Shown: positions 17,541 to 29,634, numbered from the stretch's first letter. The stretch: 56,600 nt of DNA from a virus (IMGVR_UViG_3300028840_002373:1-56600), one strand, 5' to 3'. Notes: generated by a model from the letters alone, not told the origin. Numbers and translations: made by a program.

Positions 17541-18008
17541 ATAGTTTTCTTTCAGTAACTTATAGGTATTCTTCATTTCCTGTATATCCAGATCATTCAT
17601 AGGTCTAATATAGTCTTTATCGATTAAAATATCTAATCTTTTCTTAATTGTGTTTTTATCAATGTTACCAAAATATTGCCCTAGTTTTGCCAATGATGGT
17701 CTTTTGAATAATCCATCTTTACTATTGATTTTTATGTAGTAGAATAACATTTTTAATTGGTTATCTAGGGTTAACTTTTTATAATTTTGGTGATTTTTTT
17801 CTAAAAAATCGCCCATATTAGGTGTATTTTTAGTTTGCTCACCAGTTAAAGAGTTCATGTATCGAAACACGCTTATATCAAAGGGTTGAATTAGTTTTAT
17901 TTCTGGTGAATCACTTAGTGACTTGTTGTGATTCTTGGTGAGTGATTTCTTCTTTGTCTTCTGTAAGTTCAATTTTGGCAAGATTAATTCTTTTAGTTGA
18001 TTTATCAT
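17538..18008 (-). CDS. Winged-helix DNA-binding protein overlapping the FtsK 3' end
   Basis: RPSLAKLGQYFGNIDKNTIKKRLDILIDKDYIRP wHTH pattern; own AAAGGA RBS. Confidence 0.6.
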   Translation of the reverse strand: MINQLKELILPKLNLQKTKKKSLTKNHNKSLSDSPEIKLIQPFDISVFRYMNSLTGEQTKNTPNMGDFLEKNHQNYKKLTLDNQLKMLFYYIKINSKDGLFKRPSLAKLGQYFGNIDKNTIKKRLDILIDKDYIRPMNDLDIQEMKNTYKLLKENY

Positions 18009-19716
18009 TTAAAACATATCCTTTCTTTAAGATTTCATACAATTTATTATGTGTATTGTTTGTAAGATAACCCTTCAATTTATAATTATCTGTCTCAGAT
18101 AAGACGAAAAATTCTCCAGTATTCAAACTTGGTATCATTTGTTGATATTCTTTCTTAGTTGTTATATTACAGCAGTCTATTGTATCTTCTAGTAAATGAG
18201 CTATCCTAGTAAACTGAGTCTTCCAAGACTTAACAAAGTCATTATCATTGGTTTGTTGTACTGCCATTAAGCAAAACATACCATATTTACGACCCCTTTG
18301 TAATAATGTTTTGATTTGCTTCTCCATTGGTTCAAACTCTTTTTTATCCATTTCGCTTTTAAATGCATTTGCTTCATCAACAGCAAAACAGATATACGGT
18401 AATTGTTCATTGTTAACCTTGTTATACTCTTGTATATTTTCGACTTTTAATTGTCTAAATGCTTGTTTTCTTTTATTATACTCAGTCAATAACTCAGTTA
18501 AAGCATTGTTTATATGGGGTACTTCTGATTCGATATATTTAACATTGTAGAAGTCTTCATATCTTACAAGTGCTGAGTCGGCAAAATCAAGCATATACCA
18601 GACAATATTAGTATGAAAGTACATGAGCGATTCTATGATACATTTAAAGGTACAAGATTTACCACTACCAGTTTTACCAGCAATTAAAAGATGTTTAAGG
18701 TTTGTTAGTGTATCAGTAACGACATTACCATTACTCATATTAACCCCTAGTATAAATTCTAAATCTTTTTTAACTGTGATATCTGGTATAACATCATCTA
18801 ATAAGTAGGTTTTAGTTACATCTTTTGATATTTTGTACAATATATAACCATTAGATACCTCAATATTACCTTTGTTTAACCCTATTCCCATTTTATGATT
18901 AATATCGTCCTTTAATCTTATTACCCTTTTAATAGGCAATATTGTTGTAAATTTATGAATAATTTCTGTATCAGTCTCATTAGTGCTTATGAAGTTAGGT
19001 TTATCCTTCATATTAATTAAAATTTGCTCTAATCTTGCTATACTTCCAGCTTCTAGTTTTCTGTAGTCGTTTTTTCCTAACTCTAAGTGATACTTATTCA
19101 AAACTAATTTATCCCTTCTTATACATGATATGCTATGATTAACTATAGACTCCAATTTGGTCTTATAAGTTATATCTAAAGGTTGAGTGGTAACAACTGT
19201 TACTACTTTATTTTTTACCTCAATTATCTCTAATCCATTAATAGTATCATTAGCTTTAATTTGCATATTTTCAACCATTTTAAAGTTTCTTTTAATGTTA
19301 TACATAATATAACTCAGCCCTCCTAGTGGTAATGTTAAACCATAGTATAAATTGTTTAACTCAGGTAATATCTGTTTATCTGAGAATTTCCATATATCTA
19401 TATAGTTATCATAAACTACAAAAGAAACTACAGTTAAAATAAAAGAGATAACTAATCTCTTATGATTAACATTACTAATTGATTCTATTATCTGTTTAAT
19501 CATTGATATAAATTTACTTCTCTTATATTGCTTAGTCCAACTATGAATAGCTACGCAATATGTATAATTAGATAATATCAATCCAGATAAGTAAATTAAT
19601 AAACTCTTGTCTACTCCTAGCTTACTCAATGTCCATGTTATACCTGTTAATATACATAGATTATATATAATCATTGCTATCAATTTCTTATCTTTAATTA
19701 ATGTTCTTAGCTTCAT
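17911..19716 (-). CDS. FtsK/SpoIIIE-family ATPase with N-terminal TM helices
   Basis: HLLIAGKTGSGKS Walker A, FAVDEA Walker B, LQRGRKYGM arginine finger, AVQQ; four N-terminal hydrophobic segments; no obvious gamma domain. Confidence 0.9.
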   Translation of the reverse strand: MKLRTLIKDKKLIAMIIYNLCILTGITWTLSKLGVDKSLLIYLSGLILSNYTYCVAIHSWTKQYKRSKFISMIKQIIESISNVNHKRLVISFILTVVSFVVYDNYIDIWKFSDKQILPELNNLYYGLTLPLGGLSYIMYNIKRNFKMVENMQIKANDTINGLEIIEVKNKVVTVVTTQPLDITYKTKLESIVNHSISCIRRDKLVLNKYHLELGKNDYRKLEAGSIARLEQILINMKDKPNFISTNETDTEIIHKFTTILPIKRVIRLKDDINHKMGIGLNKGNIEVSNGYILYKISKDVTKTYLLDDVIPDITVKKDLEFILGVNMSNGNVVTDTLTNLKHLLIAGKTGSGKSCTFKCIIESLMYFHTNIVWYMLDFADSALVRYEDFYNVKYIESEVPHINNALTELLTEYNKRKQAFRQLKVENIQEYNKVNNEQLPYICFAVDEANAFKSEMDKKEFEPMEKQIKTLLQRGRKYGMFCLMAVQQTNDNDFVKSWKTQFTRIAHLLEDTIDCCNITTKKEYQQMIPSLNTGEFFVLSETDNYKLKGYLTNNTHNKLYEILKKGYVLNDKSTKRINLAKIELTEDKEEITHQESQQVTK

Positions 19717-20026
19717 CTTAAATCACCTCGTATAATCGTTTAAATAGGTCTTAAATTGATTCTTATGTCAAAAGAGTATATTTAGTACTCTTAATTCTCT
19801 TAGCGTTCTAAGTGCCTTTATTTAATTAATAATCATATCAATTATTAATAAGATTATTATTTATCAATAATTATATAATGAATTATCATTTATGACAAGC
19901 AGTAAACATTAATTATAATTATGACTAATGTAAAATTTGATTTTACTTATTACAATTAAAAAATATTATCATTATGTAGGTGAATCTTTGTCACATATAT
20001 TTTACTTTTATTCGCTTGTAGTCATG

Positions 20027-20457
20027 TTGGGCAGTCAGGGCAATTAAAAGAATTATGATAATTTCTTAAAATCTAACTAAGAGTTAATAAGTAGACTGTA
20101 GTAGTCTTGGGCAATTCTCCTAGTTAGGTCTGGGCAGGTTTTAAAAAAGTTTGGGCAATTTATTTTTAAGCTACTACTGTATTTGGGCAATTAGGGCATA
20201 TATTTAATAAGTTCGCTGTAGATACTGAGAATAAAAAAAAGTGGACATATGTACATGATAAAAAAATATAATATATATATATATATATATAAAAGTAATT
20301 TTGCAAAAATGCGCCCAAAGCGCCCAGATGCAGTCAGGAGAAGGGCTAAGATGTGCCCAAGAAAATGCCCAAAATGCCCAAGATTTTTTTTGAACTGCTA
20401 CGAGTAAACTAAGAGAATTAATCTCACAGGTTTAAAAAAGTGCCCAAAAATGCCCAA
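20027..20457. repeat. Origin-like element A: seven (T/A)GGGCA repeats, AT-rich (TA)n core, seven inverted YGCCCA repeats
   Basis: GGGCA motifs at 20027-20198, (TA)n at about 20266-20291, GCCCA motifs at 20312-20457; non-coding. Confidence 0.85.
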
Positions 20458-20539
20458 TCAACTAAGAGAACGGATTCAATGCTCAAGATTTATATTGAAG
20501 ATAATAATACTTTTTTAATTGGTAATGATGTTGTATCTA

Positions 20540-20568
20540 TTGTAATTGATGATAACTTATGATAATAT
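20540..20568 (+). promoter_or_regulatory. Promoter TTGTAA-N17-TAATAT
   Basis: Same architecture as the copy at 21516. Confidence 0.6.
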
Positions 20569-20641
20569 ATAATTAGTGAGTTTAGATTAAGTAACTCGTG
20601 TTACAGTAATCTGGGTTGCGTTAAATAGGAGGTAAAGGAAA

Positions 20642-21765: not shown

Positions 21766-22028
21766 TTTTTTTTAAGGAGGATAAATGGTTAATGAGAAAT
21801 GAATATAAGGAGTTGTTGAAATATTCAAAGATAATCGAGATTAATAAATCAAATCATGTATTGAATTATTATAACTGGACACTACATATAACAGAAGGTG
21901 AACGAGAAACTGTATGTAAACTATATTTAAAAAATATATGTGTTTTAACTGATCATTACTATGACACCAAAATAAAATGGAAAGATTATGAAACTTATAC
22001 CTTAAAGGAAGGTATTTTTGGAGAATAG
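21747..22028 (+). CDS. Hypothetical protein
   Basis: ORF; true start probably after AAGGAGG near 21775. Confidence 0.5.
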   Translation: MDNYKIIFFKEDKWLMRNEYKELLKYSKIIEINKSNHVLNYYNWTLHITEGERETVCKLYLKNICVLTDHYYDTKIKWKDYETYTLKEGIFGE

Positions 22029-22043
22029 AAAGAGGTGATTTAA

Positions 22044-22467
22044 ATGTGTCTAAACCGTTATATTATTGGTTTAGACCCTTGAACTAGGTGGTTCAACGGG
22101 TTTCATCGTAGTTAATAAGGATAACTATGAGATCATGGAGTACAATACATTAGATGGTTATAAGGAGATACACAAAGAACTAAAAGATATAAGTGGTAAT
22201 TATGAGATAGTCTGTGAGGACTATAGAGCAAATATTAAGACTAAAGATCAAGCATATGCCATGAAGCTTGTGGGGTACATAGAAGGACTTTGTATAACGA
22301 ATGGTATTAAATGTACCTTACAACTTCCAAGTCAAAGAAAAGGGTATTTAAAGCAATCTAAGGAAACATTGAGGGGTTATGGTTGCAATGTACCTCATGT
22401 GATTGATAGTTTTGCTCATGTATTACGATATATTGATAAGGTGGTTAAAAAGGAGGAAACCAAATGA
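22044..22467 (+). CDS. RuvC-like Holliday junction resolvase, interrupted by TGA with a +1 frame change after codon 12
   Basis: MCLNRYIIGLDP* then +1 frame ELGGSTGFIVV...IVCEDY...HVIDSFAH; RNase H-fold catalytic D/E/D pattern; GAGGTG RBS before 22044. Confidence 0.75.
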
Positions 22468-22817
22468 GTACAGTTAATAATATGTTAATTAAGAAATATA
22501 TAAGATTAAGAAATATATATAGTCAATGTAATTTAAGGTTTAATATATTTAACAATTGTTTAAATCTTCTTGATACAGATAATTTTGACGAATCTAAGTT
22601 TGATGATATTACTTCTAGATTCTCAGAAACAATTAATGTTGATAAAGAATCTGAGTTTACTAATGAGTTACAAGAGTTCTTGAGTGTAAATGTTGATGTA
22701 GATTTGGAAGAATATATTAAAATGATTGAAACAATTAATGATTACTATGTTACTAAATTATTTTTGAAAACATTGTTAACTAAAGAAGATAAGATAAATT
22801 ATATATTATTAGATTAA
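22464..22817 (+). CDS. Hypothetical protein (paralog of 22952-23377)
   Basis: Shared F...L.E.L....D......MIET.N.Y...EDK..Y pattern. Confidence 0.6.
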   Translation: MSTVNNMLIKKYIRLRNIYSQCNLRFNIFNNCLNLLDTDNFDESKFDDITSRFSETINVDKESEFTNELQEFLSVNVDVDLEEYIKMIETINDYYVTKLFLKTLLTKEDKINYILLD

Positions 22818-23628: not shown

Positions 23629-25302
23629 ATGTTAACTAAAAAAGGAAATAAATTAATCTTAGAAGGAAATAATTTACCAGATTTCAATAGTGTACAAGGT
23701 AGCTCAAGAATAAAAAATGCATGGAGTTTTCCTATTGATTTCTTTTGTGTAAATCAGATAGCTAAAATATTGGGTTCTATTAAATTAGAACCTAGTGAGG
23801 AAGTTAAAAAGTGGTACTATGAGGAATATAATAAAAACTCATTAGCTAATAAGGTACAAAAGAATCAAGTTGTACCAGTACTAAGTAATATAGAAGGTTT
23901 AAACAAAGAATTAAAAGATTATCAATTACAGGGTGTTAAATTCTTTTTATCTGTTAACCGCTGTATACTAGGGTTCGAAGCTGGTTTGGGTAAAACTCTT
24001 ACAGCTATTAATTGCATGAAAACAATTAAAGCAAAAAAAGTTTTGGTAGTTTGTCCTAGTTACCTTAAATACAATTGGGAAGATGAAATAAACAAGTGGT
24101 CTGATTATACAAATACCATTATTAATGGAACACCAACTCAAAGGGAACAAGGTTACAAAGATTTCAAAGAAAATAATAAAAACATACTTATTGTTAACTA
24201 TGAGCAAATAAGATACAAAGTAACTAAAGGAGAAAACAACAAGGTAACAAATAAAGAAATTAAGATTCATAAGGATGTTTTAGAGCCAATATGGGATTTA
24301 ATAATAATGGATGAATGTCATAGATTAAAGGGAAGGGATTCTCAGGTATCTGAGGGTATGTTAAAGCTTAAGTCTAGAAATAAATTAATGCTCACAGGTA
24401 CACCAATTAATAAATGTGAAACTGAGATATGGAAGTTATTAAGGATTCTTGATAAACAAAGGTTTACAAGTTACTGGAAGTTTGCGGAGTATTACTGCAA
24501 TGTTGAAGATGGTTTCTATGGTAAAGAAATTAAAGGACTAAAGAATCCACAAGAATATAGTAAACTTCTTAATCGTTATATGCTGAGAAAGAAAAAAGAG
24601 GATGTAATAGATTTACCAGATAAGGTCATAAAGACTATTAAAATTGACTTATCACCTAAGCAACTAAAGTTATATAAGCAAGCTGAGAAAGACTATTTAA
24701 ACCCTAAAGGTGATGTTATAGAGTCAGATGTTGAAAAGTTTATAAGAATCAATCAAATAGTGCAAAATCCAGCAATCCTCGATGGTCAAAACGTATCTTC
24801 TTTAACTGATACAGCAATTGAAATACTACAGGATAATGAGGAAAAATTTATTATAGGCTGTGTATACATTGGTATGTCTGAGTTGACATATGAGACAATT
24901 AAAAAAGCTTTTCCTAAAAGAGACGTATTTCTTGTTAATGGTACGATTAATAATAAGAATAGACATGAAATAATAGAGAACTGGAAGAAAAAAAGAAATT
25001 CTATCATAATCACAACAATAAAAGCTATGAGTGAGGGGTTAAATTTAGATATCTGTGATAACATGATGTATCTTGATTATGATTGGTCAAATGTTGCCAA
25101 TTCACAGTTTAGCAATAGGATTCATAGAATGACTAGTACCAGACAAAAAATGTATTATCATTTAATTGTTAGAAAAACAGTATCAGAATACAAATACTAC
25201 AAGCTAATGAATGAAGATCATCAGATGTCTAAAGCTTTAAATGATACTCCTAGTGCTATTAAATATCTAGCTGAGGAATACAGGAGGTCTTTAGATGACT
25301 AA
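23629..25302 (+). CDS. SNF2-family (SF2) helicase
   Basis: LKDYQ, GLGKT, DECH, LTGTP, EGLNL and RIHR motifs. Confidence 0.93.
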   Translation: MLTKKGNKLILEGNNLPDFNSVQGSSRIKNAWSFPIDFFCVNQIAKILGSIKLEPSEEVKKWYYEEYNKNSLANKVQKNQVVPVLSNIEGLNKELKDYQLQGVKFFLSVNRCILGFEAGLGKTLTAINCMKTIKAKKVLVVCPSYLKYNWEDEINKWSDYTNTIINGTPTQREQGYKDFKENNKNILIVNYEQIRYKVTKGENNKVTNKEIKIHKDVLEPIWDLIIMDECHRLKGRDSQVSEGMLKLKSRNKLMLTGTPINKCETEIWKLLRILDKQRFTSYWKFAEYYCNVEDGFYGKEIKGLKNPQEYSKLLNRYMLRKKKEDVIDLPDKVIKTIKIDLSPKQLKLYKQAEKDYLNPKGDVIESDVEKFIRINQIVQNPAILDGQNVSSLTDTAIEILQDNEEKFIIGCVYIGMSELTYETIKKAFPKRDVFLVNGTINNKNRHEIIENWKKKRNSIIITTIKAMSEGLNLDICDNMMYLDYDWSNVANSQFSNRIHRMTSTRQKMYYHLIVRKTVSEYKYYKLMNEDHQMSKALNDTPSAIKYLAEEYRRSLDD

Positions 25303-26028: not shown

Positions 26029-26784
26029 ATGGCTAAAGGAACTAAAACTTCAAAAGGAACTAAATATGTAAGTGGAAAGGTGGATTTAATATTTCCAGCT
26101 ATAGCAACACCACAGTATTATGTAGCAAATAGTAACAAGTTTGTAACAATTCAGAAAGAAGATCAATTGGAAAAAGAATGTACTAAGAACGATAAGGGTG
26201 TATGGGTAAAGCAAGTAGATGATAAAGATGTAGACTTAGGATATGTTGTTACTGTATTAGTACCAAAAGATTCGAATGAGGGTAAGAAGATTAAACATAT
26301 AATAGATACTGAATGGGAAAATGGTAAAAAAGCTGGTATGATTTCTAAAAGATCACTTTATCCATTAGTAGATGGTGATGAAAAAGCGGATGAATTAGAA
26401 TCTAGAGATAAAAACGGAGAATATTACAGAGGTTGTTATAGTCTTCAAGCAAAAACAAAATATAAACCATTAATAATCGAGGGTAAAAAAAGAGTCAATC
26501 CAACATCAACTATATTTGATGTAGATCACAATGGTTGGACTGGTAGAGTATCGTTAACAATTAGACCATATAAATTTGGTGCAAATTCAGGAGTTAGTAT
26601 CAAACTTAATCAAATATGTTTCTTAGAAGATAATCCAGATTTAGATTTTGGTGGCGGTTGTGATTTTGAGATTGAGGAAGAAGACGAGCAAACAGATTTT
26701 GGTAATAATGTTGCAAATAATGAAACAGTTAACACAGGTATACAATCATGTTATGATGAAGAAGAAGAACCACCAGTCATGTAA
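26029..26784 (+). CDS. Single-stranded DNA-binding protein (DUF2815/Enc34-like)
   Basis: PLVDGD, Y.G.Y.L.AKT, GRVSLTIRPY...NSGVSIKLNQI and an acidic C-terminal tail. Confidence 0.82.
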   Translation: MAKGTKTSKGTKYVSGKVDLIFPAIATPQYYVANSNKFVTIQKEDQLEKECTKNDKGVWVKQVDDKDVDLGYVVTVLVPKDSNEGKKIKHIIDTEWENGKKAGMISKRSLYPLVDGDEKADELESRDKNGEYYRGCYSLQAKTKYKPLIIEGKKRVNPTSTIFDVDHNGWTGRVSLTIRPYKFGANSGVSIKLNQICFLEDNPDLDFGGGCDFEIEEEDEQTDFGNNVANNETVNTGIQSCYDEEEEPPVM

Positions 26785-26913: not shown

Positions 26914-29634
26914 ATGGATATTAAAGATATAAGGTATAACATAATAGATATTGAGTGTCTATATTATAAAAAGGATGGTGTTAACTCAGGATATTTTAGT
27001 TTTCAATATTTAACTGATGAAATGGAAGAAGCTAAGATATTTGAGTGTAGGACTGATAAACATTTTCATACACTTTATAGATCATTATCAAAGACTAATA
27101 GACCAATGTATTGTTATTCAATAGACTATGACAAACTTATGATTAACTGCTTTTGCAAAATGGTCGAAAAAGGTATAACAAATATCGCATGGAAACTCAG
27201 AAACATATCAGATTTTTATATTAATGGTGATGTAAACTTTTTTCAGTTAAACAAGGAGTTTTGGGTTGATATATATTATGAAAATAAAAATTCTTTTGAT
27301 GGTGATGATTTGTACGAATGGTCACTAGATCAATTAAAAGAGAATAAGTCAGATAATGAGATAGAATTTATTAATCGTTATGATTGGTTACTAGGTAAGT
27401 CTAAGTTATTTAGTAAACTTAACATACTAGAGATACCTAAGATTATGTATTACTATACTATAAGACAAGACAACAAACCAAGAATGACTATATCACTAAA
27501 GAAACTACAATTATTCTATGAGAACTATAATATAAAATTTGATTTCGCTAAATATATGAATATGGCTGACATAGAGAAAGATGGTCTATATGACGAATTT
27601 ATTAAATACTCTTTAAATGATGTTGATTTCCTTAAACGTATCTGGGATAAGAAAGCTAAAGACGATATTGTAAAAAGAATCTATGCAGTTAAAGCAGTTA
27701 AGAAATTGAATCCAGATTTTGAAGTATCTGAAAGAGCTATTTATTCAGAAAATAACACAAAATTAATCAATGAGATACTAAAGATCGATAACCCTAACAA
27801 GGATATTAAGATCAATTATTTAGATTATGTTAACACTCCATATGATAAGTTTAATAATTTCGCAAGCTTTATTACACTTAATCAAGATGTTAAAAAGGAT
27901 AAAGAATTAAAGAATAAATATTGTGAAACTTATGAAAAAATATATGAAAATGATGATACCAAAAAGTATGAAGATGGGCAAGTTGAAACCATTGTTAATA
28001 CTATTGACGAATTAAATATCAATGATGTTATGGTCAAATTTGGTCTTGGTGGTTTACATGGTTCTTTAGAAAACTATATTCAAGATGATTTAATTCATTT
28101 AGATTATAGATCACAATACCCATCAATCATACTACAATATAAAGAATTGTTCTCACAGATAATAAATGTTGACTTGTATGAACAGGTTTACAATATGCGT
28201 AATTTCGAGATTAAACCACGATTAAAACAGTTATATGAAGATCAAAAAAATCAAGACAGTATTAATAAATTAGCACAATTAAAAAAAGATGCAGAAGATC
28301 AATTGAAAATCATACATGATGGTGGTAATGATGGAGCAGACATAGCAGTATATCAAGATTACATGAGCGAAATTGAACACTTAGAAACAAAATCAAAAGA
28401 AATCTATGATGAAATTACACAACTAACAGAATTAGAGCAAGGTTTAAAACTTATATTAAATACTGCTTATGGTCTTATTAATAGTAACTTCAAGTTATCC
28501 ATAGCAAATAAGACACTAGGACGTTTAATTTGTTTAAAAGGTCAATCAATGTTACTAAATCTAATGTATAAACTTGGTAAAACTGAGATAGCAAATGTTA
28601 ATACAGATGGGATAATTGTAAAAAATACTGAAAATCTAGACATAGATCAAATAGTCAAAGAAGATGAAGACAGATACTTTGTACTTGGTGTGTCAAAGAT
28701 AGACAAATTAATACAAAAATCTGTTAATAGTTACATTAAGATATCTAATGGTAAGATGAAAACTAAAGGAGAATTCAATCTATCAATTAAGAACTATATT
28801 AATAAACATGATAAGTTTATAGGTTTACCAAATGCACTTAGAATGATTGAGAATAAACCTAATGAGATATACCCTATTTATTTTAATCGTAGGTATGTAG
28901 ACGTACAAGGGTATGAGGAAGATTTCAAAGATCATGCTTATTATTTAACTGATAAAGATAATGGAGCAATGGCAATTAAGAAAACTATAAGACCATTAAT
29001 ACTAGGGTGTGAGGGTGAAATAATGTATTTCACACCAGATAAAGAAAAGGCTAGAATTGGAGAATACAATAGATTCGCAACATTAACACATAATAAAATA
29101 ATGGAACATAGATTAAGTGATAGCTCGAAGGGTATTAAGTATTACAAGTATGAATTGTCACCAGATGAAAACGAGGACTCAATTAAAAATAAAAGATTCA
29201 TTAAAAGAAAATTAGCACAGTTAAAGAAGGATAATATTTTAATTGTTGGGAATATATCAATTGATGGTAGTGAACATAAGACAACTATATTATGTCAAGG
29301 TAATAATCCAGTTAAAGACTTCAACAATTATACTATGACTAATATATTAAAATCTAAGAATGTAACAGGATTTTATTTAGCTGAGAACAATAGTTATCAC
29401 ATGGTTAGTACGGATAATTTAGAGACAATAGAATTACTTGATAACTTCAATACCTTAACAGTCACACACAAAAGCGGTAGAAAATGTTATATATTCGGCG
29501 ATATTGACAAAGAATATATCAAATGCTTTGAAAACATTAGATATCAAAAGGGAATAAGTATACCATTAGTTAAATTAGATGATAGTTATACCTGTGATTT
29601 CAACAAACCACAATATTTAATCTCAGATTTATAA
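26914..29634 (+). CDS. Family B DNA polymerase with 3'-5' exonuclease
   Basis: DIE (ExoI), YSLND (ExoIII), DYRSQYP (motif A), KLILNTAYG (motif B), NTDG (motif C). Confidence 0.92.
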   Translation: MDIKDIRYNIIDIECLYYKKDGVNSGYFSFQYLTDEMEEAKIFECRTDKHFHTLYRSLSKTNRPMYCYSIDYDKLMINCFCKMVEKGITNIAWKLRNISDFYINGDVNFFQLNKEFWVDIYYENKNSFDGDDLYEWSLDQLKENKSDNEIEFINRYDWLLGKSKLFSKLNILEIPKIMYYYTIRQDNKPRMTISLKKLQLFYENYNIKFDFAKYMNMADIEKDGLYDEFIKYSLNDVDFLKRIWDKKAKDDIVKRIYAVKAVKKLNPDFEVSERAIYSENNTKLINEILKIDNPNKDIKINYLDYVNTPYDKFNNFASFITLNQDVKKDKELKNKYCETYEKIYENDDTKKYEDGQVETIVNTIDELNINDVMVKFGLGGLHGSLENYIQDDLIHLDYRSQYPSIILQYKELFSQIINVDLYEQVYNMRNFEIKPRLKQLYEDQKNQDSINKLAQLKKDAEDQLKIIHDGGNDGADIAVYQDYMSEIEHLETKSKEIYDEITQLTELEQGLKLILNTAYGLINSNFKLSIANKTLGRLICLKGQSMLLNLMYKLGKTEIANVNTDGIIVKNTENLDIDQIVKEDEDRYFVLGVSKIDKLIQKSVNSYIKISNGKMKTKGEFNLSIKNYINKHDKFIGLPNALRMIENKPNEIYPIYFNRRYVDVQGYEEDFKDHAYYLTDKDNGAMAIKKTIRPLILGCEGEIMYFTPDKEKARIGEYNRFATLTHNKIMEHRLSDSSKGIKYYKYELSPDENEDSIKNKRFIKRKLAQLKKDNILIVGNISIDGSEHKTTILCQGNNPVKDFNNYTMTNILKSKNVTGFYLAENNSYHMVSTDNLETIELLDNFNTLTVTHKSGRKCYIFGDIDKEYIKCFENIRYQKGISIPLVKLDDSYTCDFNKPQYLISDL

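Follow-up and report, generated by a model that had tools for sequence, protein, structure and literature searches.

A predicted forward recoding site at codon 12 of a RuvC-fold resolvase gene in an uncultivated phage

The DNA analysed here, IMGVR_UViG_3300028840_002373:1-56600, is a virus record of 56,600 bp in IMG/VR, complete and flanked by direct terminal repeats, and represents an uncultivated phage; the term window is used for this whole stretch, and positions are counted from its first nucleotide. Its plus strand carries a gene (22044-22467) that encodes a RuvC-like Holliday junction resolvase, but the gene is split: the first 12 codons end at an in-frame TGA, directly after the Asp-Pro of the catalytic motif, and the rest of the protein continues in the +1 frame. 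From comparison of related sequences we predict that recoding of some kind at codon 12 produces the full-length resolvase, and we regard this as likely. A +1 shift at CCT-TGA, giving the junction DP-EL-GGSTGF, is the event that we tentatively favour.

An interrupted gene for a RuvC-fold resolvase

The features of the gene are collected in Table 1. The codons of open reading frame 1 (ORF1) are ATG TGT CTA AAC CGT TAT ATT ATT GGT TTA GAC CCT, and TGA follows at 22080-22082. Relatives of the gene (described below) have either GAGGTGAT or GAAGTGAT at the position equivalent to 22032-22039. In the +1 frame a TAG at 22072-74 precedes an open stretch, 22075-22467, that reads (TL)ELGGSTGFIVVNKDNYEIMEY..., with ELGGSTGFIVV after TL. 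Because the +1 frame is open from 22075 only, and ORF1 stops at 22080-82, joining IIGLDP to GGSTGF needs a change of frame within 22075-22082. Two junctions can be read from the sequence. With a one-base step at CCT-T the junction is DP-EL-GGSTGF, in a protein of 140 residues, and with TGAACTA (22080-22086) omitted it is DPGGSTGF.

Table 1. Coordinates of the interrupted resolvase gene and of the elements around the break
Feature	Position	Strand	Description
Shine-Dalgarno-like GAGGTGAT	22032-22039	+	Ends 4 nucleotides (nt) before ATG 22044; read from sequence
ORF1	22044-22082	+	12 codons, MCLNRYIIGLDP, then TGA; encodes beta-strand 1 and invariant Asp11 (GAC 22074-76)
Hairpin SL1 (predicted)	22048-22076	+	Arms GTCTAAACC (22048-56) and GGTTTAGAC (22068-76); 9 perfect pairs, 11-nt loop
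Hairpin SL2 (predicted)	22073-22103	+	13 pairs, bulged C 22097, loop AGGT; 5' arm contains CCT and TGA
Candidate recoding site CCT TGA	22077-22082	+	Pro codon in P site, UGA in A site; nascent chain ends Asp-Pro
TGAACTA	22080-22086	+	7 nt extra relative to family motif; coding gap in a hop, or, from 22081, GAA CTA (Glu-Leu) in the +1 product
ORF2	22081-22467	+	+1 frame, 128 codons, remainder of RuvC-like fold; stop 22465-67
ORF2 residues	E58 22216-18; H118 22396-98; D121 22405-07; H125 22417-19	+	Invariant alignment columns
First start codon in +1 frame, ATG	22135-22137	+	Start chosen by gene callers in relatives

The earliest ATG, GTG or TTG of the +1 frame is at 22135, and the protein that starts there has 110 amino acids (aa). 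Since Asp11 and strand 1 are encoded in ORF1, and strand 2 (STGFIVVN) in the part of ORF2 that has no start codon, this 110-aa ORF cannot be the complete enzyme. Upstream of ATG 22135 no Shine-Dalgarno-like motif was found in three of the relatives (L004-L006), and there is no conserved motif of this kind at that position. An earlier note on this DNA, made from the sequence alone, had described a good ribosome-binding site, ATG 22044, IIGLDP and TGA 22080, the continuation of the catalytic motif in the +1 frame, and the alternative junctions left by a +1 slip or by skipping tgaacta, and it had remarked that the 22135 ORF lacks the first catalytic Asp. This layout agrees with ours throughout, with the addition that beta-strands 1 and 2 are missing from the 22135 product as well.

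The gene product is, by its modelled structure, a RuvC-fold Holliday junction resolvase, for which junction cleavage is the predicted activity. The structure of the +1-joined protein was modelled with AlphaFold2 on an alignment of 21 family members (predicted local distance difference test, 94.2; predicted template modelling score, 0.89), and has the order beta-beta-beta-alpha-beta-alpha-beta-alpha-alpha, with strand 1 formed by residues 6-12. A Foldseek comparison with the PDB returned 55 matches at E <= 0.001, of which the top one is T. thermophilus RuvC 4ld0 (E 3.4e-6; template modelling (TM) score 0.68; next matches: 7w8d, 6s16; RuvC of D. radiodurans and E. coli, chloroplast MOC1, Lactococcus phage bIL67 RuvC 4ktw, and poxvirus resolvases). 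The model and these matches bear out the RuvC-like assignment of the earlier note. Residues D11, E58, H118, D121 and H125 are invariant in all 21 aligned sequences; among them are an Asp at the end of beta1, a Glu and a C-terminal (H/D)-x2-D, and we take these residues to be equivalent to the RuvC catalytic tetrad, going by position in the fold rather than by residue-level superposition. Like bacterial RuvC, bIL67 RuvC, poxvirus A22 and plant MOC1, the protein thus has an RNase H-like fold (TM 0.6-0.7) with invariant acidic and His residues in matching elements, and its gene is part of a phage replication/recombination module. It differs from that family in that the gene is interrupted and in that sequence similarity is too low for the Pfam RuvC model. 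The joined protein matches phrog_1770, Holliday junction resolvase, in PHROGs (E 6.8e-5), and matches no Pfam family at E <= 1; when the 21 aligned members were searched against Pfam, seven matched DUF460 (best 1e-5) and one gave a weak match to RuvC (0.051). A sequence profile search of the PDB gave nothing better than E 0.1. The beta1-beta2 turn, in which the break falls, is one residue shorter here than in E. coli RuvC.

Distant homologs define the spacing of the motif at the break. An exhaustive HMMER search with the +1-frame part gave 82 representatives at E <= 1e-3, the 81 others being 27-48% identical to it. The N-terminal motif is uninterrupted in 78 of these 81, and the remaining three, namely an N-terminally truncated protein, a divergent one and one of 4,847 aa, are without this region. 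The spacing D-P-x3-T-G is found in 76 of the 81, in 62 by the regular expression D-[P]-x3-[T/S]-G-hydrophobic and in 14 by eye, with a variant residue; one of the regular-expression matches is doubtful, one homolog (P0012) is one residue longer, and none is two residues longer. Because the spacing is fixed in 76 of 81 homologs, the break looks like a 7-nt insertion. The commonest form of the motif is DPGG-x-TG, which is exactly what a 7-nt skip leaves, so that the proposal that such a skip restores the canonical motif agrees with the distant homologs.

A conserved break between two predicted hairpins

Close relatives were sought by a word-indexed search of 5.8 billion proteins, which gave eight relatives (69-91% identity) among 12 candidates. 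In all eight the database gene call is 104-115 aa long, lacks the N-terminus, and starts at or just before the internal Met. For comparison at the DNA level we used five contigs from metagenomes and a viral contig, the latter being the same record as one of these. Together with the window they provide five distinct sequences, namely the window, L002, L004, L005 and L006 (L003 does not differ from L002 over the gene). The proteins of the four others are 72-91% identical to that of the window. The break is identical in all five, and the metagenome contigs come from at least four other data sets. The four non-window sequences all read ATG TGT CTA AAC CRY TAT ATK ATK GGT TTA GAC CCT TGA RCT AGG TGG TTC AAC GGG TTT. 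Searched by protein or DNA pattern, IMG/VR gave just one related contig; the phage GenBank collection gave no match, and two scans of representative prokaryote genomes gave no relative, and thus no clue to the host.

Assemblies from the Logan collection were compared over 21950-22480 at a likeness of at least 80%, and four public runs gave 2, 1, 18 and 1 contigs (22, of which 12 were listed). Among the contigs listed, several of which span the site, there is no base change, indel or joint in 22068-22104, with the proviso that contigs drop rare variants. From 22105 onward differences are frequent, and indels are confined to two that offset each other, at 22122 and 22125.

Sequence comparison shows purifying selection on the gene body: the ratio of nonsynonymous to synonymous divergence (dN/dS) is 0.06-0.19 over codons 19-118, with a proportion of synonymous differences (pS) of 0.33-0.64 between lineages. 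Since the break is common to lineages with pS up to 0.64 and dN/dS is low, the interruption is old and the gene has been kept under purifying selection with the interruption in place. The start-less region 22081-22134 (18 codons) keeps GGSTGF and varies only in the predicted beta2-beta3 turn, with no net change of length; the stretch ahead of ATG 22135 in the +1 frame is, on this comparison, protein-coding.

Two hairpins are predicted next to each other across the break. SL2 comprises AGACCCTTGAACT-AGGT-GGTTCAA(C)GGGTTT (-13.9 kcal/mol, z-score -3.18; none of 200 shuffled sequences as stable), and its upper stem, which begins at the U of UGA, has -4.7 kcal/mol by itself. GTTCAA, which follows downstream, has the extra bases (T)TGAAC(T) as its reverse complement; the apparent insertion thus created most of the upper stem of SL2. 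SL1, a hairpin beyond those in the earlier note, ends with its 3' arm at the codon immediately before CCT, and when folded alone has -12.1 kcal/mol (z-score -5.26; equalled by none of 200 shuffles). The two hairpins are predicted adjacent to each other in all five sequences, with combined energies of -20.8 to -20.9 kcal/mol (z-scores -2.7 to -3.5; 0-1 of 200 shuffles as stable).

The same region is constrained at the nucleotide level. The variable positions of SL1 (22057, 22058, 22064 and 22067) are all in its loop, and its arms are invariant. Across 22068-22103 the lone change is A22083G, which turns an A-U pair into a G-U pair and GAA into GAG, a synonymous change in the +1 frame; the runs 22084-22103 and 22068-22082, on either side of it, are the longest invariant runs of the whole gene. 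Variable third codon positions number 2 of 12 in 22068-22104, against 66 of 118 elsewhere (Fisher one-sided p 0.0098), and 5 of 20 in the first 20 codons, against 63 of 110 elsewhere (p 0.007).

These comparisons bear on the remaining claims of the earlier note. It had placed the stop within a stem-loop of which the extra bases form one arm, and the fold matches that description, with 13 pairs and the bulged C; aligned with homologs, stop and hairpin are identical in all five distinct sequences, apart from the pair-preserving A22083G. It had considered that the reads might hold a sequencing error, or that close relatives might be uninterrupted and the gene a simple pseudogene. Contigs of the four runs are without an indel at the site (rare variants could escape contigs), and all close relatives are interrupted, with purifying selection on the gene. 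Its main proposal, expression through a +1 shift or a 7-nt bypass, is supported by the conserved interruption and by this selection, the full-length product itself being predicted. The purpose that it suggested, to limit a toxic nuclease or to couple its synthesis to levels of release factor 2, would be a possible role of such recoding.

Several other elements were looked for around the hairpins. Folds of 22090-22150, 3' of SL2, are weak and not common to L006 (z-scores -1.5 and -0.4), and show no stimulatory structure; by eye, no conserved pseudoknot partner was seen for the loop of SL1 or SL2. A scan for intrinsic terminators did not call either hairpin, and Rfam gave 0 matches. As a separate observation, AGGTGG (22086-22091), formed by the SL2 loop and the first bases of its 3' arm, is Shine-Dalgarno-like and lies directly 3' of the candidate recoding site. 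All relatives keep it unchanged, though two of its bases occupy 4-fold-degenerate codon positions, and no start codon at a usable distance after it was found in the window or in L002.

Possible routes to the full-length protein

For the +1 shift, we picture the following course of events. Ribosomes would initiate at ATG 22044, synthesize MCLNRYIIGLDP, and then stall, with CCU in the P site bound by peptidyl-tRNA(Pro) and the A site occupied by UGA, where termination would be slow after Asp-Pro. Because the Asp-Pro of the catalytic motif precedes the UGA, the catalytic motif itself would supply the poor termination context; slow termination after an Asp-Pro C-terminus is described in PMC5009743 and PMC3985003. 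With the UGA in its upper part, SL2 may in addition shield the stop from release factor 2 (RF2). At the mRNA exit, whose channel would hold exactly the 3' arm of SL1, refolding of that hairpin would draw the message forward. Some of the ribosomes would then move by +1, either by re-pairing of tRNA(Pro) on CUU or by occlusion of the U. GAA would be decoded next and translation would proceed to 22467, to give a 140-residue enzyme with Glu-Leu inserted in the beta1-beta2 turn. We infer that the outcome would be low-level expression of a potentially toxic nuclease, and that the shift, its size and the roles of the hairpins would be as pictured here.

Shifty stops after Pro codons are established, and the review PMC5009743 gives CCC_UGA in Listeria phage tsh genes and in E. 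coli pheL (15% shift); a +1 shift is the common natural solution at such stops. As at prfB CUU_UGA_C, at these CCC_UGA sites and at antizyme UCC_UGA, a short first ORF ends at UGA and the main ORF is in the +1 frame, and the site shares with shifty stops as a class the Pro codon in the P site, conservation among relatives, and a slow termination context. Also in favour of the +1 shift, A22083G, the single substitution at the site, leaves the +1-frame amino acid unchanged, and no sequence has a stop in the two extra codons. The site departs from known shifty stops in its place at codon 12, with a conserved hairpin on either side instead of a pseudoknot downstream, and in its gene class, a resolvase, which is new for a site of this kind.

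Several points weigh against a +1 shift of this kind. The codon is CCU, rather than CCC or CUU, and CCU_U is not a classical slippery quadruplet: by the pairing rules, the +1 codon CUU would face tRNA(Pro) with one Watson-Crick pair, the rest being G-U or U-U wobble. CCU_UGA was not found in the 300,000 of the 449,034 characters of PMC5009743 that were searched, or in PMC3711429, and a full-text literature search for it together with frameshifting gave 0 papers. A Shine-Dalgarno-like stimulator 3 nt upstream, as in prfB, was not found; 22060-22076, where SL1 lies, has no Shine-Dalgarno-like run. In the +1 product two extra residues would directly follow the catalytic Asp-Pro; this turn has one and the same length in 76 of 81 homologs and is two longer in none. 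As for the hairpins, one that holds the shift site in its 5' arm cannot be a classical downstream roadblock, and both could serve the control of translation initiation instead. The arms of SL1 and SL2 never vary, which leaves no covariation to assess, and the evidence for the predicted structures is their computed stability together with suppressed synonymous change.

The alternative that comes closest is a hop of 7 nt, which we consider possible, with a lower probability than the +1 shift. Here peptidyl-tRNA(Pro) would leave CCU 22077-79, the mRNA would slide by 7 nt, and the tRNA would re-pair on CUA 22084-86, with decoding resumed from GGU 22087; the refolding of SL1 at the exit and the A-site hairpin with UGA would assist. 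The product would be the canonical ...IIGLDPGGSTGF... enzyme, free of extra residues. The protein family supports it, since skipping TGAACTA restores the exact motif (D-P-x3-T-G, most commonly as DPGG-x-TG). On CUA the UGG anticodon would form C-G, U-G and A-U pairs, better than those on CUU. The loop base A22086 is invariant although 4-fold degenerate, but the chance probability that it and one other degenerate loop site are both invariant is about 0.2. The take-off codon CCU does not match the landing codon CUA, no CCN codon occurs downstream within 22080-22140, and landing on CUA requires the upper stem of SL2 to be open. Natural short hops are also far rarer than +1 shifts, according to PMC5009743.

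Two known systems serve as models for such a hop. In T4 gene 60, as described in PMC5462505, a small A-site hairpin with the stop hinders release factor 1, and folding of a 5' stem-loop as it emerges from the 30S subunit is proposed to pull the mRNA forward. The layout here resembles gene 60 in miniature: both are phage DNA-metabolism genes in which the stop directly follows the take-off codon within a hairpin (the structures here being predicted), and with SL2 holding UGA and SL1 ending at 22076 in all five sequences, the same two forces could act. It differs in that the gap would be 7 nt rather than 50, take-off and landing codons are unmatched, a 3' stem-loop was not found, and the nascent peptide has 12 residues, so that a tunnel signal of the gene 60 type is improbable. 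The second model shows that very short gaps have precedent. Terminase genes of Streptomyces phage phiHau3 and related prophages have 10-nt and 7-nt inserts, a stem-loop and an internal Shine-Dalgarno sequence, and a junction peptide identified by mass spectrometry in E. coli supports a 10-nt bypass (PMC10732093). In both cases an essential phage gene is put out of frame by a short insert (7-10 nt) where the protein junction is highly conserved, stem-loops and a Shine-Dalgarno-like sequence are nearby, and the same argument applies, namely that a +1 shift would insert residues at the conserved junction. The pause codon, however, is here a UGA stop after Asp-Pro and there a rare UUA, and the Shine-Dalgarno-like AGGTGG is 3' of the site here and 5' there. 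The fuller form of this reading, in which a clade of phages makes canonical resolvase at a low, possibly RF2-sensitive level by a hop from CCU to the non-matching CUA, driven by a miniature gene-60-like hairpin pair and the Asp-Pro-UGA stall without a long nascent-peptide signal, we judge somewhat unlikely.

It is improbable that no recoding takes place. ORF1 would then be a 12-codon leader (an upstream ORF) and the hairpins would act on initiation or on the stability of the mRNA; either the Met19 protein, begun at ATG 22135, would be the functional product or the gene would be inactive, and the N-terminal motif would be held by RNA-level constraint alone. Gene callers treat all eight database relatives in this way, the strong constraint on 22044-22104 acts on nucleotides and might reflect structure alone, and ORF1 has too few changes to separate protein-level from RNA-level constraint. 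However, the Met19 product would be without Asp11 and without strands 1 and 2 of the RNase H-like core, and its ATG has no Shine-Dalgarno-like motif in L004-L006. Nor does this account sit well with the 18 start-less codons, which keep GGSTGF and vary only in a predicted turn, and the dN/dS values, at the synonymous divergence reached, exclude a decaying gene.

We think it very improbable that the frame is restored before translation, by a minority form of the DNA or by an event in the RNA (polymerase slippage, editing or excision of the 7 nt). Little speaks for it beyond the fact that the 7 nt are one arm of an inverted repeat, and inverted repeats are hot spots for templated indels. The site, CCCTTGA, offers no homopolymer for transcriptional slippage, the contigs of the four runs show neither joints nor indels there (though contigs drop rare variants), and we know of no mechanism that removes 7 nt from bacterial mRNA. 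An error of sequencing or assembly, or a recent pseudogene of this record alone, has no support and is refuted by the same break in at least four other metagenome data sets and in the Logan assemblies of four runs, at pS up to 0.64.

Two further candidates were tried and rejected. Reassignment of TGA fails in that read-through in frame 0 meets TAA at 22113-15, and this phage uses TGA as a normal stop, at the end of 17 of the 78 ORFs of at least 80 aa. For a phage tRNA that reads four bases, ARAGORN found 0 tRNA genes. A second site of the same type was also looked for: of 30 CC[CT]TGA sites, the one at 22077 is alone in linking an upstream frame of 10 or more codons with a +1 frame of 100 or more.

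Genomic setting and significance

The window has a GC content of about 27%. The resolvase gene is in a plus-strand block with an SNF2-type helicase (23629-25302; phrog_62, E 2e-94) and a Gp2.5-like protein for binding and annealing of single-stranded DNA (26029-26784; phrog_112, E 6e-20). This block is a replication/recombination module, which is a natural location for a junction resolvase. The stop of the resolvase gene overlaps the start of the next gene (ATGA, 22464-22467), and translation of that ORF (22464-22817), which has no PHROG match, may be coupled to the frame-changed ribosomes. The module also contains a 906-aa ORF (26914-29634, plus strand) with no PHROG match at E <= 0.001.

On the minus strand, a 601-aa protein (17911-19716) resembles PHROGs of the FtsK/SpoIIIE type (E 2.7e-32) and has a weaker match to the terminase large subunit (E 3.6e-8). 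A gene-poor region of about 900 bp (19720-20640) separates the minus-strand from the plus-strand gene blocks, and contains short repeats arrayed about a palindrome, the AT-rich (TA)n of 20260-20302. On one side of the palindrome AAAATGCCCAA occurs four times (20362, 20371, 20437 and 20447), and on the other side its complement, TTTGGGCAATT, occurs 3-4 times (20033, 20106, 20150 and 20182). The GC skew changes sign within this region, which could be an origin of replication or a divergent operator region.

A full-text search of the literature on programmed frameshifting or recoding together with Holliday junction resolvase or RuvC and phage gave no report of recoding in a resolvase gene. The frameshift in PMC7911831 concerns a tail chaperone. 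The PRFect paper (PMC10885494) lists 'RusA/RuvC' among genes 'known to contain a frameshift', and cites for this only a 1991 paper on the identification of ruvC. What we predict from the sequence comparisons is thus a case of programmed forward recoding that is new in its gene class and unusual in its site and in the arrangement of its hairpins. Its set of features (CCU before UGA, a slow Asp-Pro context, two hairpins abutting the shift codon, and a position 12 codons from the start) is not described together in the literature searched.

For the family, one consequence is that the resolvase is truncated by gene callers in all eight database entries, and its catalytic N-terminus is therefore missing from the protein databases. 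Natural recoding sites are few in bacteria and phages, and each has been informative on how ribosomes keep or lose their frame. The element described here covers about 60 nt, which is small enough for asking if refolding of the mRNA alone, without a long nascent peptide, drives a forward shift or a short hop.

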